A stretch of DNA of 64,000 nt from a virus (lineage: Duplodnaviria; Heunggongvirae; Uroviricota; Caudoviricetes). Where the stretch lies: IMG/VR virus record IMGVR_UViG_3300045988_142422. One strand, 5' to 3'. The notes beneath the pieces are model-generated. The model saw only the letters and a program-made list of their open reading frames with translations. It ran no database searches and was not told where the DNA came from. Positions 19,564 to 59,829 of this stretch are shown here, one piece after another. Made by a program: the position numbers and the translations under genes. Positions within the stretch are counted from its first letter, which is position 1. Every line of letters starts with the position of its first letter.

Positions 19564-19638
19564 GATGGTGTAGCTCAGCGGTAGAGCAGTTGGCTGTTAA
19601 CCAACTGGTCGGTGGTTCGAATCCACCCACCATCGCCA
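19564..19638 (+). tRNA. tRNA-Asn (anticodon GTT)
   Basis: Cloverleaf by eye: acceptor GATGGTG/CACCATC, D-arm GCTC/GAGC, anticodon loop CTGTTAA, T-loop GGTTCGAATCC, 3' GCCA. Confidence 0.85.
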
Positions 19639-19640
19639 AT

Positions 19641-19716
19641 GCCGGTTTAGCTCAGTTGGTAGAGCGCCTGCCTTGTAAGCAGGATGTCAGCGGTTCGAGT
19701 CCGTTAACCGGCACCA
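19641..19716 (+). tRNA. tRNA-Thr (anticodon TGT)
   Basis: Acceptor GCCGGTT/AACCGGC, anticodon loop CTTGTAA, T-loop TTCGAGT, 3' ACCA; 2 nt after tRNA-Asn. Confidence 0.85.
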
Positions 19717-19786
19717 ATACAACGATAAGATCATTACGGTTAATCGTCGTTCATGTGCACAATGACTGGTCGAAAGGTAGTGATCT

Positions 19787-19938
19787 TACCGTTGTGGTGG
19801 ATTCGCAGACTGATGCGATAGCTTTCTTGGATGTTAGGGAAATGCGGCCGCAAATCTTCCCTTTCGCGAGCGGTGATCGTCCGTAGTCCTAATTGGCTGC
19901 ACCGTATGCCGGAGATTCAGTACCGGCCACCACAACGG
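19787..19938. other. Long-range inverted repeat (12 bp CCGTTGTGGTGG / CCACCACAACGG) enclosing about 126 nt
   Basis: Arms 19787-19800 and 19927-19938; second arm ends 2 nt before tRNA-Ser. Confidence 0.5.
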
Positions 19939-19940
19939 CC

Positions 19941-20027
19941 GGAGAGTAGGGAGCATGGTGCTCAAGCGGTCTTGAAAACCGTCCCATTGCGCAAGCGATG
20001 ATGGTTCGATTCCATTACTCTCCGCCA
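19941..20027 (+). tRNA. tRNA-Ser (anticodon TGA), long variable arm
   Basis: Acceptor GGAGAGT/ACTCTCC, anticodon loop CTTGAAA, long variable arm, T-loop GGTTCGATTCC, 3' GCCA; D-arm atypical. Confidence 0.7.
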
Positions 20028-21287: not shown

Positions 21288-21533
21288 ATGACGATCACTA
21301 TCTACGGACGAGATAACTGCTCATACTGCAAACGTGCGGTCGAGCTGGCGAAGCAACTAAAGGGACATGGCTACGGTGATTATGAGTACATCGACATCAC
21401 CACTGCCGGTATCGACAAGGAAAAACTAAGTGAAATTGTTGGTAAACCGGTAGAGACTATCCCCCAGGTGCTGATCGATGGCCAGCCGATTGGCGGATAC
21501 ACAGAACTGGCTGTATACGTCAGCACCCTCTGA
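21288..21533 (+). CDS. Glutaredoxin-like protein
   Basis: 81 aa; redox motif CSYC near N-terminus; size and pattern typical of Grx/NrdH. Confidence 0.7.
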   Translation: MTITIYGRDNCSYCKRAVELAKQLKGHGYGDYEYIDITTAGIDKEKLSEIVGKPVETIPQVLIDGQPIGGYTELAVYVSTL

Positions 21534-21540
21534 TTTTAAC

Positions 21541-21563
21541 GGCTCACAGGAGCCGTTTTTTAT
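21541..21563 (+). terminator. Rho-independent terminator
   Basis: CGGCTC-ACAG-GAGCCG followed by TTTTTTA. Confidence 0.7.
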
Positions 21564-21743
21564 TCCCACCAAACCACTCCTGTTTCCCTTAAAATTCAAA
21601 AAACAACGTCTAAATGATTCCATACCTACTATGTATGGAATCATTGCTGAAAATGAGTTACTTTTACTCTTGATCCTATAAGAATCTATGCCTAATATAC
21701 TGTTTACTTATACAGTGCATCGGCGTAACTCGGTGATTGTCAT

Positions 21744-22847
21744 ATGAAAAATAGCTTTGACAGAGCACGCGCTGCGGAGAACACCTCAAAAGAGGCGATA
21801 GAGTATCTCGAAAGAGCATCTCAAATGCAGGCCGTTATGATCTCCCAGGTCAGCAATGACATGAGATTCTCGGACGCATTCATGTTATTCACTCGCTTAT
21901 CTCTGCTGATAACCAGACGTCGGCCAGAGATCGCTGTTCATTGTATTTTGATACATGTTTTGCCGCACATTGCCGATGTAAAAGTAAGTGACATTAATAG
22001 GTTCATGGTGAACCAACTGGTCAACCCACTAATACTGGATGGCAAAATTGTTATGGGCCGCCGCGTTTTCTCTCTGATGAAGCAGTTCCTTAGCTGGTGC
22101 GCCTTCCAGGGGATGATAGACGTGTCACCGTTAAACGATATGTCACTTAACAAAGTTGCCGGTGGCGCAAAGCCCACACCTCGCGAGCGGAAGCTGACCG
22201 ACGCAGAGGTATGGGTGTTCTGGAATATATGGGACTACTTCAATGTGTGTGCTGGTACAAAATGGGCGGCCAGGCTATGTCTTGTATCCGCAAGACGACC
22301 TGACGAAGTACTGCGGGCTAAAAAAAGTGAGTTCAATCTTAAGCGTGGGGTTTGGAATCAAGGCAAGAGGAACAAATCTGCCCGTGAGCATTCTCTGCCT
22401 TTAAGCTCATTAATGCGCACTTGTATTGAAGAGTTGTTCGAATATGGTAAAGACAGCCAGTGGCTCGTGCCTTCGAATAAAAAAATCGGGAAAGACCTTC
22501 CTATGTCTAAAGTGGCAATAGCCCAGGCATTACGTCGTATTCTGGAACGACCAGAACTGATGGAGCTTGAGCCATTTACACCCCGAGATTTGCGCCGTAC
22601 TGCGCGTAGTTACTTCCCAGCATTAGGCATAAGCCAGGAGGTATCACGTAAAATCATGAACCACAGTCTTGAGGGGATAGATCGGGTCTACGACCGGCAC
22701 GATTATATGGACGAGATGCGAGACGCCTTAGAAAGTTTCTCGACGTACATCGCATCAATCGTAGAGCAACCGGATTTAGACGAAATTGACCACAAATTTA
22801 AGGGAGATCGTCTATCAACAGAGCTTATTCGTGTAAATTTTTCATAG
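21744..22847 (+). CDS. Tyrosine recombinase (integrase or resolvase)
   Basis: C-terminal catalytic region DLRRTARSYF...HSLEGIDRVYDRHDY with R..H..Y signature. Confidence 0.7.
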   Translation: MKNSFDRARAAENTSKEAIEYLERASQMQAVMISQVSNDMRFSDAFMLFTRLSLLITRRRPEIAVHCILIHVLPHIADVKVSDINRFMVNQLVNPLILDGKIVMGRRVFSLMKQFLSWCAFQGMIDVSPLNDMSLNKVAGGAKPTPRERKLTDAEVWVFWNIWDYFNVCAGTKWAARLCLVSARRPDEVLRAKKSEFNLKRGVWNQGKRNKSAREHSLPLSSLMRTCIEELFEYGKDSQWLVPSNKKIGKDLPMSKVAIAQALRRILERPELMELEPFTPRDLRRTARSYFPALGISQEVSRKIMNHSLEGIDRVYDRHDYMDEMRDALESFSTYIASIVEQPDLDEIDHKFKGDRLSTELIRVNFS

Positions 22848-30960: not shown

Positions 30961-31232
30961 AAGAATTATGGCGCTTGTTGAGGAAGTCACTCCTCTTACG
31001 CACTTTGTTTTGCCATGCCGGCAGTTAGCTTCTGCCTTTGACTATTCATGCGGCAACCCCGCATTTCGCCACAATGGGCAATTCACTTTTATGGAATAAA
31101 CTGGCCGTTGTGTCGATTTAATTAGCATGGCCTTACCATGCTAATTTATTCAACTTGTACAATCCTACAAATCTATCCACTCAGGCTTACACCGTCTTCG
31201 TTATTGTAGAAATGAGGATCATCAGCGTTGAA

Positions 31233-31448
31233 TCAGCTTAGAGCAACGACATTTGCTGCTGCTGGGCCTTTAGCCCCATTCTCGATAGAGAATTCGACCT
31301 GCTGGCCTTCTTCCAAAGTGCGGAAATTATTACTCTGAATTGCCGAAAAATGTACAAAAACATCTTTACTGCCATCAGCAGGAGAAATAAAGCCAAAGCC
31401 TTTATCAGAGTTAAACCATTTTACTAAACCAGTCATTTTATTAGACAT
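31233..31448 (-). CDS. cspA: Cold-shock protein (CspA family)
   Basis: [38 protein letters not shown]... near-identical in pattern to enterobacterial CspA; track ORF extended upstream of true start. Confidence 0.95.
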
Positions 31449-31777
31449 AGATATTACCTTCTTAATTTTGTGAGCCACATAGTGCGGCGAGAATTTGATC
31501 TGTATAGATTGGGACTTACTTAGGCACTTAAGGAGGAGACTCACGAAGAAGGGAAATCAGAAGATAACACTGAACTGAGACTGCTTTACTAAAACTGCTT
31601 ACATAAGGTCTGTCTTGCAAACCAACGATGCTATTAACGCATACCCCTTCTTTTCATGCAACCTTTATTTTTCAAAGATAACTAATTTTTGTCACCATTG
31701 GTTTAGTAAACGTTAACGAACCAGACGATGCCAGACACCTTTACAGAGAACAGATGCCCGCCAATTGGCGGGCATCA

Positions 31778-57646: not shown

Positions 57647-58240
57647 ATGATTGCAGCCGAAAAAATCAAACAGCGAAAGCGCGACAACTCTCTTCGTGAC
57701 CTCTGGAGAACACCTGACTGGCTGTTTTCTGCCATTCAACGTTATCTTGGAGTGACATTTGATGTTGACGTTGCCTGCAACAAGGACAATGCAAAGCTGC
57801 CTAATTTCATAGGCGTTGAGCGTGATGCTTTGAAATCTGAATGGGGACAGCCAGGTACAATTGCCTTCCTCAATCCACCCTACTCCAAAATCTCCCCCTG
57901 GATTGATGCGGCTATACGTGAGCAGGCTCGCGGAGTTACAACAGTGATGCTAATTCCTCAATCCCTAGATACAAAGTGGTATGAGCGTGCAACAGAGTGT
58001 GCGAATGAGACGATTATTCTGTCTGGTGGCCGCGTAGCGTTTGTCGAGCCTGACGTAAATCTGGGTCAGGTAGAAGTAAACATCAACCCAGGTGGCAGTA
58101 TGCTCGTTGTTTTTCGAGGATTCTGTCAGGACGCTGGGCACTCTATAAGCAAGATCCCTTTGGACGTCATGAAAAGTCTGGGAGGGTATGATCCTGCGAA
58201 TGTGATCAGGAAAAAAAGACCATCAAAGAAGGCTGCTTAG
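57647..58240 (+). CDS. DNA N6-adenine methyltransferase (phage Dam-type)
   Basis: WRTPDWLF N-terminal motif and catalytic NPPYS. Confidence 0.7.
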   Translation: MIAAEKIKQRKRDNSLRDLWRTPDWLFSAIQRYLGVTFDVDVACNKDNAKLPNFIGVERDALKSEWGQPGTIAFLNPPYSKISPWIDAAIREQARGVTTVMLIPQSLDTKWYERATECANETIILSGGRVAFVEPDVNLGQVEVNINPGGSMLVVFRGFCQDAGHSISKIPLDVMKSLGGYDPANVIRKKRPSKKAA

Positions 58241-58425
58241 TTTGTTCTGGCGTCTGTAATTAGCCTGCTTCTGTATATATAAATAACTACATATTAATTA
58301 TTAATATACGGAAGCAGGCTGTTTTGTATCAGAGACTCCAGACCTGAACATCACTACAGAATCCACTAGAACCCCTTCCCAGACGCTTTAAAATCGATTT
58401 TATGAACCACTTTAAGGAAACCAAC

Positions 58426-58656
58426 ATGTCATACCCGACTAATGTCGTTGCGCTCGTAGAGAGCGATTTTCTGGCCCAGGCTCGTGAAATGATGAAAGAT
58501 CGTGAGCAGGCTTTCAACTTGTACGAATGGGCAATTAAGTGCTTGCATCTTGGCGAGCATCGCGAACTTGTTGAACAGCTTTTAGGTGAGTTGATCAATG
58601 AGGTGTTTGCCTTGAATGTTCAACTACATGGTAGAGAAAATAATCAATCACAATGA
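58426..58656 (+). CDS. Hypothetical small protein
   Basis: ATG after AAGGAAACC; 76 aa. Confidence 0.45.
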   Translation: MSYPTNVVALVESDFLAQAREMMKDREQAFNLYEWAIKCLHLGEHRELVEQLLGELINEVFALNVQLHGRENNQSQ

Positions 58657-59238
58657 TAGATAAGTACAAACTATTCATAAAGTGAATTGTAAGTGCTAAG
58701 ATCTGATAGTTTCCAGTCGTAGACTGGAGACTCGACCTGATGGGTGGGGGTAAGCGTCACTGGCGTCAGGTTTAAAAAAGCTCACTACCAGCGTAGAACT
58801 GGTGCCGTTTAGGTGTCGGGGAAGGGGGAACCAAAGTGAGCAGAGACAAGGGTCACTTTATGATTGTCGAGTCTGGGGGGTTTCGAGAGGTTGAATCCAG
58901 TACTCCCCTTCATAAAGTGTGGGAAGATCTCGGTTCTGGGGTGCTGTCATCCATAACTTCCCAAGTCTAAGCTGGCAGTAGACTTAGACCATAACTTTTC
59001 AGGTTATGAAACGACCAGGTTGGTGAGAGATTTTTATACTCACCTCCCTGGGAGAGTATTACCTGAAAAGACAACCTCTCACTTCGTTCGAGGTGAACTT
59101 CACTCACTTCGTTCGTTCAGTTCAGGTTTATAAAAACCTGTTCTGGGAAGTAATTTGTTTATTTTAATAATTATTAACACGCACGCGTGTGCGCACGCGC
59201 GAGGAAAAATCGGCGCGGCGCTTGATTCAGGAGTTTAT
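58657..59238. other. ORF-free, G-tract-rich structured region with alternating purine-pyrimidine tract (candidate ncRNA, pac or origin element)
   Basis: No ORF of 60 aa or more on either strand in 58657-59154; GGGGG runs near 58742, 58817, 58873, 58938; 13-bp direct repeat CTCACTTCGTTCG at 59078 and 59103; (CG/CA)n tract 59177-59201. Confidence 0.4.
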
Positions 59239-59829
59239 ATGACGACGAAGACACCAGCCCGATCGCAAGCAAAAACTCGCAAAAAAGCCAAAAACAAAAA
59301 TTCCCCCCGCACCAATCCCACAACGCCTGTCGTAGAGTTCAATCCCCAGCTTAAAACCGTGAAAATCTTTAGTGATGGCTCTTGCCTTAAAAATCCGGGT
59401 GGCCCGGGCGGTTACGGTATCGTTCTCCAGTATCGTGGTGAGGAACGCGAGTTCTCAGATGGTTTTCATAGCACCACCAATAACCGCATGGAGATGATGG
59501 GGGCACTTATCGGGCTGGAGCGTTTGAAATATCCATGCAACGTTATTTTGCACTCTGATAGCCAGTATCTGAAAAACGGCATGACACAGTGGATGAAATG
59601 GTGGAAACGCAATGGATGGATGACTTCTGACAAAAAACCGGTAAAGAATGTTGATCTGTGGAAGCGTCTGGATGAGGCCGCAAGTCGACATAATGTTCGC
59701 TGGAAGTGGGTTAAAGGTCACGCCGGGCATCGTGAAAATGAAATATGTGATCGACTCGCGAAGATCGCAGCTTTTTCAGCAGCAGATATGCCTCACAAGA
59801 AAGATATTGGTTTTGTTTATAACAAATAG
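59239..59829 (+). CDS. rnhA: Ribonuclease HI
   Basis: ATG after AGGAG; basic N-terminal linker then [18 protein letters not shown]...HSDSQYL...[17 protein letters not shown]. Confidence 0.85.

Follow-up and report, generated by a model that had tools for sequence, protein, structure and literature searches.

Within a 64,000-nucleotide (nt) window taken from a tailed phage (Caudoviricetes; IMG/VR record IMGVR_UViG_3300045988_142422), the stretch at positions 58657 to 59238, upstream of a gene for RNase HI (rnhA), is very probably a gene for a structured RNA transcribed from the + strand. The window is part of an Escherichia coli phage-plasmid of the SSU5/pHCM2 type, and it shares 99.4% identity with Escherichia phage CMS-2020a, 98% with PhiR41_1 and Cyrano, and 82% with Salmonella phage SSU5. 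A first-pass annotation made from the letters alone had offered a packaging site, a lytic origin, or a structured noncoding RNA for this stretch. The last of these is the one sustained by our analysis, through covariation, a strand bias of G-U pairs, a conserved predicted promoter, and a published transcriptome sequencing (RNA-seq) signal. We further consider it probable, with clearly less assurance, that the folded RNA acts in trans and serves the lysogenic phage-plasmid.

RESULTS

Conservation of the RNA body

The lack of open reading frames (ORFs) remarked on by the first-pass annotation was confirmed, as no complete ORF longer than 46 amino acids (aa) lies on either strand within 58657 to 59154. 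Moreover, no reading frame is conserved across clades: all open frames are shorter than 80 codons, and their frame and extent shift with indels. The conserved RNA body of ~450 nt (58708 to 59155, + strand), inside which lie the sequence identity, the covariation, and the expression signal described below, is 90 to 95% identical to its counterparts in the SSU5, Klebsiella, and Cronobacter clades, versus 74 to 81% for the flanking genes (Dam methylase, a small gene, and rnhA). The same holds in the clade of locus L094, with 82% identity for the RNA body versus 71% for the flanking genes. The short spacers on both sides are unalignable or poorly alignable, and conservation stops at about 59155. 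The stretch thus encodes no protein, and its RNA-level fold is under strong purifying selection.

Covariation and strand of the fold

Thirty nonredundant homologues were aligned, the fold was computed with RNAalifold, and pairs were counted on the alignment. The folding proposed as a check by the first-pass annotation gave a conserved structure of 100 predicted pairs in about 17 helices. Standard pairing was found in 99.1% of the alignment cells, compared to 31 to 48% when the 3' partners were slid by 1 to 3 columns. Changes on both sides of a pair affected 36 pairs, compared to 4 to 9 in the slid controls and 15.7 +/- 2.9 after column shuffling, and none of 500 shuffles reached 36; the compensatory substitutions expected of a structured RNA therefore exceed both kinds of control. 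G-U pairs make up 12% of the cells, and the same structure read on the - strand pairs in only 86.9% of the cells versus 99.1% on the + strand, thus fixing the + strand and favoring RNA over duplex DNA. Substitutions track base pairing and not codon positions, and many junction and loop sequences are invariant. Compensation arose independently in several clades, as illustrated by helix P1, in which CCUGA/UCAGG becomes UCUGG/CCAGA in Klebsiella and GCAGA/UCUGC in the JZ38-type clade, and by P6, in which GUCUAAG/CUUAGAC becomes GCCUAAG/CUUAGGU and then ACCGGGA/UCUCGGU.

Predicted promoter and expression in the lysogen

An extended -10 element of the TGnTAnnAT type (TGcTAAGAT, 58694 to 58702, + strand, hexamer 58697 to 58702) is predicted directly upstream of the RNA, with a weak -35 element TTCATA at 58674 to 58679. 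The element was read by eye, since a simple promoter scan requires a -35 and left this site unlisted. T58694, T58697, A58698, A58701, and T58702 show no variation in any clade, JZ38 and L094 included, amid an unalignable spacer. As the element lies 8 to 10 bases ahead of the 5'-terminal hairpin, transcription is predicted to start at about 58708 to 58711. In the E. coli clade only, an 11-mer, TTCATAAAGTG, at the putative -35 (58674 to 58685) repeats the 3' strand of helix P4 (58909 to 58919) and is hence complementary to the P4 5' strand (58853 to 58863); it is not conserved in SSU5 or Klebsiella.

The phage-plasmid Cyrano of E. coli LF82 is 97% identical to the window at the RNA locus. CYRAN_81, a 135-bp ORF annotated as a hypothetical protein of 44 aa (Cyrano 78657 to 78791), lies inside the RNA, and Misson et al. 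include it in their list of genes active in the lysogen, with a signal 12 times the Cyrano background (PMC9928086, Table 1). Their values, given as log2(FPKM+5) (FPKM, fragments per kilobase per million) for five conditions with two replicates each (PMC9928086, S1 Table), are 6.82/6.92 (BLB), 9.34/9.02 (B1), 6.94/6.89 (B6), 8.97/8.23 (MB1), and 10.35/10.30 (MB6) for CYRAN_81. In the same order, the upstream gene CYRAN_80 shows 3.36/3.13, 4.62/4.2, 4.1/4.07, 5.81/5.14, and 5.22/5.01, and the RNase HI gene CYRAN_82 shows 2.59/3.44, 3.87/3.83, 4.42/4.27, 4.7/4.01, and 5.02/4.78. CYRAN_81 therefore stands 12 to 40 times above both neighboring genes in all five conditions, at a level comparable to that of the prophage repressor CYRAN_45, and during lysogeny the RNA is high and the early genes around it are silent. 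This excess over both neighbors argues for a promoter of its own and an effective 3' boundary. The CYRAN_81 "moron protein" is thus this RNA.

Two other entries of the Cyrano data set deserve mention. The "moron" ORF CYRAN_40, at 15 times background, is antisense to, and overlaps, the Cyrano tRNA genes, which form a tRNA-Asn, tRNA-Thr, and tRNA-Ser cluster (window 19564 to 20027, + strand; L106:22-269); its signal is probably that of the tRNAs, an artifact similar to CYRAN_81. CYRAN_43 (L106:1269-1823), a "hypothetical protein" gene between those for glutaredoxin and integrase, reaches 723 times background in LF82 lysogens and has no counterpart in the window, where the glutaredoxin and integrase genes are adjacent (21288 to 22847).

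Candidate 3' end of the transcript

Downstream of the conserved body, a spacer (59156 to 59176) is A+T rich in all clades and unalignable in sequence. It is followed by the CG/CA tract and its hairpins (59177 to 59228, + strand), namely, a small hairpin (59177-81/59186-90) and a GC-rich hairpin (59191-59202/59210-59221). The alternating tract supplies the 5' arm of the latter, which has an A-rich loop and is followed by UUGAUUC. The SSU5, Klebsiella, and L094 clades also have this GC-rich hairpin with an A-rich loop, built from differing sequences. Because the RNA-seq signal falls 12- to 40-fold into rnhA, this hairpin may serve as a weak terminator or attenuator ahead of the downstream gene; the transcript possibly ends there, near 59221, and the hairpin probably limits read-through into the next gene.

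Architecture of the fold

All elements below are on the + strand. The 5'-terminal hairpin (58711 to 58729; UUCCAGUC GUA GACUGGAG) is found in every clade with a different sequence (TCCGGA..TCCGGC, CTGGCAGAT..ATCTGCCAG, CTTTCG..CGAAAG, or CTTCCAGC..GCTGGAAG). The 5' domain (58730 to 58845) carries the conserved G-rich motifs GAUGGGUGG and GGGGAAGGGGGAACCAAAG. Its helices include P1 (58735-42/58764-71), with 6 of 13 pairs changed on both sides, in three different clades, and P1a (58743-46/58758-61). P2 (58781-85/58836-40; 3 of 5 pairs changed on both sides) encloses P2a (58799-806/58812-19; 3 of 7) and P2b (58824-25/58831-32).

The central multihelix domain (58849 to 59064) is closed by P3 (58849-51/59062-64), two of its three pairs having changed on both sides, and holds P4 to P8. 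Such double changes affect 3 of 9 pairs in P4 (58854-62/58911-19), 3 of 5 in P4a (58873-77/58896-900), 3 of 7 in P5 (58920-26/58957-63), 5 of 10 in P6 (58965-74/58979-89), and 2 of 10 in P8 (59015-19/59047-51 with 59022-27/59039-44), and all of these helices, P3 included, are 97 to 100% paired; the domain also includes P5a (58939-43/58948-52) and P7 (58990-96/59002-08). A covariance model of P5 to P8 (R1) hits the window just once, at 165.7 bits.

The 3' domain (59066 to 59155) contains the conserved UUCUGGGAAGUAA and comprises P9 (59075-78/59090-93), P10 (59094-99/59119-24; 3 of 6 pairs changed on both sides), a hairpin (59123-29/59134-40), and P11 (59137-39/59145-47), in which CCU/GGG becomes CCA/UGG in L094. 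The loops of P9 and P10 both carry CUCACUUCGUUCG (59078-90 and 59103-15, respectively). Finally, nine bases at 58885 to 58893 (GAGAGGUUG) are complementary to 59072-59080 (CAACCUCUC). The inner eight pairs are invariant, the outermost is unpaired in the JZ38-type rows, and 98.5% of the cells are paired; in L094, a G-to-T change is matched by C to A in the partner, a single event, and the pairing competes with P9. The base complementarity is suggestive of a long-range pseudoknot.

Repeats, G-runs, and the alternating tract

The repeats named by the first-pass annotation are present. The 13-bp direct repeat CTCACTTCGTTCG occurs at 59078 and 59103, with a partial deletion of its second copy in the JZ38 clade; the 9-bp inverted repeat AGACTCGAC/GTCGAGTCT lies at 58728-58736 and 58866-58874. 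As a helix, the inverted repeat was rejected, since relatives retain only about six inner pairs and P1, which has better support, is incompatible with it. Among the four runs of at least five G's claimed, three were found (58746-50, 58824-28, and 58875-80), while the one near 58938 is only GGGG. The G-runs are locally dense in a G-rich 5' half (GC skew, +0.32 to +0.37). They are not kept in relatives, where GGGGG becomes GGAGG, and GGGGGG becomes GGAGTG, GGGTAT, or GACGAG. The G-quadruplex suggested for checking thus fails as a selected feature: the runs of five and six G's are broken or lost in the SSU5, Klebsiella, and JZ38 clades, and no set of four tracts is close enough for short loops. 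The G-runs, together with the inverted and 13-nt direct repeats, are best explained as by-products of the fold, in which they form helix strands and loop motifs. The 25-nt alternating purine-pyrimidine tract is likewise at 59177-59201, as described, and is the sole one of at least 20 nt in the 64 kb (0.06 expected); a long alternating run rich in CG/CA, it has predicted Z-DNA potential.

Comparison with known RNA families

None of the Rfam 15 families, which include GOLLD, ROOL, HEARO, OLE, raiA, group I and II introns, and RNase P, as well as tmRNA, 6S, CsrB, c4, Sok, and RNAI, matches the RNA, so the Rfam/Infernal scan that had been advised gave no family. At gathering thresholds, the whole window yielded only cspA and two tRNAs; an E-value scan of 58200 to 59400 returned only chance microRNA (miRNA)-like hairpin matches, and the JZ38, L094, Klebsiella, and L095 loci gave no family match either. 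The cspA match is a full-length thermoregulator 5' untranslated region at 31208 to 31626 on the - strand (RF01766, 185.7 bits), which predicts that the phage-plasmid carries a cold-shock-type gene with an RNA thermosensor. A tRNA/tmRNA scan found none in the region. A 27-nt motif shared with L017, L026, and L053 was set aside as a chance match lying inside a 442-aa ORF, as was an Acidobacteria match that abuts a gene start; an Rfam scan of the four motif-only loci found only the Acido-Lenti-1 RNA, in L091. Locus L097 (Logan SRR8137545), a copy of this locus in which almost all C's appear as T's, was also set aside; it looks like an assembly of bisulfite-converted reads and not a natural variant.

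Neither the window nor the complete 108-kb PhiR41_1 genome contains a complementary target or second copy of the RNA; outside the locus, complementarity extends to at most 10 to 11 nt, or 14 of 15, which is at chance level. An antisense immunity RNA of the c4, CI, or CA type was therefore rejected. A type III toxin-antitoxin RNA (ToxI-like, with an ~36-nt tandem array) was rejected as well, there being no tandem repeats and just two 13-nt copies 25 nt apart, and so was a CsrA sponge, the ~6 GGA motifs in 450 nt comparing with ~7 expected at random. The RNA is undescribed in the literature searched; bulk catalogues of predicted phage RNA motifs may include it unnamed.

Spread and locus context

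The RNA element was found in 687 PLSDB plasmid records from Klebsiella, Escherichia, Enterobacter, Salmonella, Citrobacter, Cronobacter, Shigella, and others, among them pHCM2 of Salmonella Typhi CT18, and in 12 phage records. It is carried by 232 of 5,426 complete E. coli genomes, nearly all on plasmids of 105 to 115 kb, and no annotation lies under it in the matching genomes. A pattern scan added many IMG/VR contigs and Buttiauxella and Kluyvera genomes. No homologue on a host chromosome was seen, 232 of the 234 matching E. coli places being plasmid borne and the 2 chromosomal places unexamined.

The gap sits in a long codirectional array of DNA metabolism genes, in the order DnaQ-like exonuclease, 269-aa ORF, Dam methylase, 76-aa protein, gap, RNase HI, and small ORFs. 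The phage-plasmid also codes for DnaE, a DnaB-like helicase, a 5'-3' exonuclease, and a ligase; it thus has its own replication genes, RNase HI being one member of this tool kit. The RepA replicon is ~18 kb from the RNA and the terminase genes ~25 kb away, as measured in pHCM2 (terminase genes at 60.4 to 62.3 kb, RNA at 86.3 to 86.8 kb).

The 76-aa upstream protein belongs to PHROG 5343, of unknown function, and is predicted as a three-helix model (pLDDT, 79). It was rejected as an RNA-binding partner, having no Pfam, PADLOC, or PDB fold match and being at background level in lysogens where the RNA is high. Right after the Dam gene, at 58262-58320, a long A+T-rich hairpin (AGCCTGCTTCTGTATA...TATACGGAAGCAGGCT, then TGTTTTGT) looks like a strong terminator between the Dam and 76-aa genes; it accounts for the spurious miRNA-like Rfam hits.

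A variable slot downstream of the RNA

rnhA adjoins the RNA in most relatives. In its place, the JZ38-type clade carries a Tad2-like (Thoeris antidefense) gene, a Salmonella Tennessee plasmid a DUF262/HEC-06 defense candidate with an IS110 element, and an Enterobacter plasmid IS3-associated betT cargo. The RNA is intact in every swapped lineage, and the junctions fall at or just after the CG tract (...CGCG(A/T)G), i.e., at window 59202-59238 and the homologous positions in L004, L101, and L102. The slot after the RNA is thus a cargo hotspot. The link with RNase HI drawn by the first-pass annotation is correct as to adjacency; RNase HI is nonetheless an incidental neighbor, because the downstream gene varies while the RNA stays. 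In the lineages that have replaced rnhA and kept the RNA, host RNase HI could substitute.

In the more distant group of L095 and L096, which keeps the small 76-aa upstream gene at 70% identity, the slot of the RNA itself holds another sequence (L095:3226-3938, also in L096). These 714 bp are ORF free, fold strongly (z = -5.8), and have a promoter-like TATTAT and a 5' hairpin; an ~110-nt very A-rich tract and two RNase H genes follow. Neither nhmmer nor covariance model R1 with filters off detected a match, so we rejected a divergent homologue; BLAST found no match in plasmid or phage collections, and Rfam none at the L095 locus. The L095-type sequence may be a second, analogous RNA.

DISCUSSION

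Altogether, these results argue for a structured RNA gene on the + strand, and we infer that it works neither by antisense regulation nor as a DNA-level site or a leader of RNase HI. We propose a model in which the RNA would be made from its own promoter with a body of ~450 nt and would accumulate in lysogeny. The folded RNA would then act in trans, by binding a protein or by catalysis, and would serve lysogeny, e.g., through maintenance, host modulation, or an interplay of defense and antidefense. Trans action is suggested by the lack of antisense targets, the independence from the downstream gene, and accumulation while the neighbors are silent; moreover, the size, the invariant loops, and the probable pseudoknot are hallmarks of protein- or ligand-binding RNAs and of ribozymes. 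By analogy, a protein-binding scaffold or decoy, or a ribozyme, would be the best guess for the role.

Several points weigh against this proposal. The preference for a scaffold or ribozyme over other trans roles comes only from exclusion and from likeness to other large structured RNAs. The phylogenetic depth is shallow, covering one phage-plasmid lineage in the Enterobacteriaceae, and many of the double-sided changes come from the single JZ38-type clade (four rows), so that the cell counts overstate the number of independent events. The RNA-seq evidence consists of reads counted over a 135-bp ORF annotated in a different strain, with strandedness unstated. Both transcript ends are sequence predictions, and no canonical intrinsic terminator was found after the conserved body. 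Lastly, the L095-type relatives have an unrelated sequence in the slot, so the RNA is not indispensable throughout the group.

The competing explanation that we take most seriously, improbable as it appears, is a cis-acting leader, insulator, or attenuator, in which the folded RNA and the GC-rich hairpin would control whether transcription begun in the early operon, or at the RNA's own promoter, reads through into the variable cargo gene. It would fit the long same-strand gene array, the lack of a strong terminator between the RNA and the next gene, the conserved GC-rich hairpin just before the downstream ribosome-binding site, the insertion of cargo always right after the RNA, and the 12- to 40-fold RNA-seq drop across the boundary. 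However, ~450 nt with ~17 helices, a probable pseudoknot, and invariant loops far exceed the needs of known leaders and attenuators, the downstream genes are functionally unrelated, and accumulation of the RNA in lysogens with the downstream gene at background fits a stable product better than a leader. Less likely still is a replication primer or R-loop origin similar to ColE1 RNA II or the T4/T7 origins, whose structured, G-rich transcript would hybridize persistently in the A+T-rich stretch, be processed by RNase HI, and prime lytic replication. This RNA indeed resembles RNA II as a structured ~500-nt plasmid transcript with G-rich segments and an RNase H gene nearby; the skewed, G-rich 5' half, the A+T-rich stretch after the RNA, the adjacency of RNase HI in most relatives, and a replisome encoded by the phage-plasmid itself all point the same way. 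Yet RNase HI appears dispensable as a neighbor, swapped for unrelated genes in several lineages while the RNA stays, and the G-runs are unconserved. No antisense RNA I partner or conserved promoter for one was found, the only - strand promoter-like site (58715..58686) overlapping the clade-variable hairpin. The replicon is of the RepA type, with its origin 18 kb away, and the region has no iterons, tandem repeats, or DnaA boxes, which also speaks against the lytic origin of the first-pass annotation; moreover, high levels of the RNA in lysogens coincide with silence of the lytic replication genes.

Two further explanations are very unlikely. hok-type mRNAs are ~400 nt long, strongly folded, abundant, and plasmid borne, and they share long-range pairing with this RNA. 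A structured mRNA for a small protein such as the 44-aa CYRAN_81, e.g., a hok-like type I toxin for postsegregational killing, would therefore match in size, folding, abundance, and carriage, on a phage-plasmid that has several toxin-antitoxin pairs and an ORF annotated at this very place. This explanation is already largely refuted: indels shift the frames and none is kept across clades, the JZ38 clade has AGG in place of the in-frame CYRAN_81 ATG at 58860, the peptides are not hydrophobic and no conserved small hydrophobic toxin ORF exists, substitutions follow pairing and not codon positions, and no Rfam toxin-antitoxin RNA matches. Equally improbable is a DNA-level site (pac/cos, a Z-DNA or G-quadruplex element, or a recombination hotspot) with incidental structure. 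The alternating tract is unique in the window, cargo junctions lie at its 3' edge, and G-runs are locally dense, but compensatory changes that keep G-U on one strand are unexplained by a duplex DNA function, the G-runs are unconserved, and the region is transcribed as a discrete unit; the distance of the terminase genes also disfavors the packaging site first suggested. The alternating tract may nevertheless be a recombination-prone junction besides contributing to the RNA.

Among known RNAs, the closest likeness of the structured RNA proposed here is to ROOL, GOLLD, HEARO, OLE, and raiA, with hundreds of nucleotides, many covarying helices, invariant loops and junctions, and carriage by a phage-like element. 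In contrast, it has no sequence or structure match to them, resides in Enterobacteriaceae phage-plasmids, is not beside tRNAs, and is expressed in the lysogen. Similar to the c4 RNA of P1/P7, the CA RNA of N15, and the CI RNA of P4, it is a noncoding RNA produced while the element is a prophage or plasmid and encoded ahead of early genes, to which a Rha-type antirepressor gene belongs in SSU5 and pHCM2; those RNAs, however, are 70 to 80 nt and pair with sites in the same operon, whereas this one is ~450 nt with no complementary site in 108 kb. As a candidate trans-acting protein-binding RNA with repeated loop motifs (CUCACUUCGUUCG twice and UUCUGGG twice), it recalls CsrB/CsrC and 6S, but GGA is not enriched, a 6S-like rod with a central bubble is lacking, and Rfam gives no match.

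The RNA is a new family within the known kind of large structured RNAs of mobile elements. Bacteria have few large RNAs with intricate folds, and those with known functions are usually ribozymes or RNA-protein or RNA-only assemblies. What sets this one apart is its wide distribution in model enteric bacteria, together with published expression data. A bolder and doubtful extension is that it would found a new class of large structured RNAs in the Enterobacteriaceae, E. coli, Klebsiella, and S. Typhi included. It would be a ribozyme or the core of an RNA-protein machine on which the phage-plasmid depends in lysogeny, e.g., to maintain the plasmid prophage or in defense/antidefense, at a hotspot locus that would exchange such RNAs, including the unrelated L095 type, along with immunity cargo.

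Our study draws attention to an RNA present in ~4% of complete E. coli genomes and on hundreds of plasmids of Klebsiella, Enterobacter, and Salmonella. Despite the heavy sequencing of these hosts, it has gone without annotation or been mistaken for a hypothetical protein and counted as a "moron" gene. Genetically tractable hosts exist (K-12 with PhiR41_1 and LF82 with Cyrano), so direct study is feasible. SSU5-type elements are of interest as carriers of resistance genes, and in these elements the RNA marks the edge of a slot that exchanges defense and antidefense genes.

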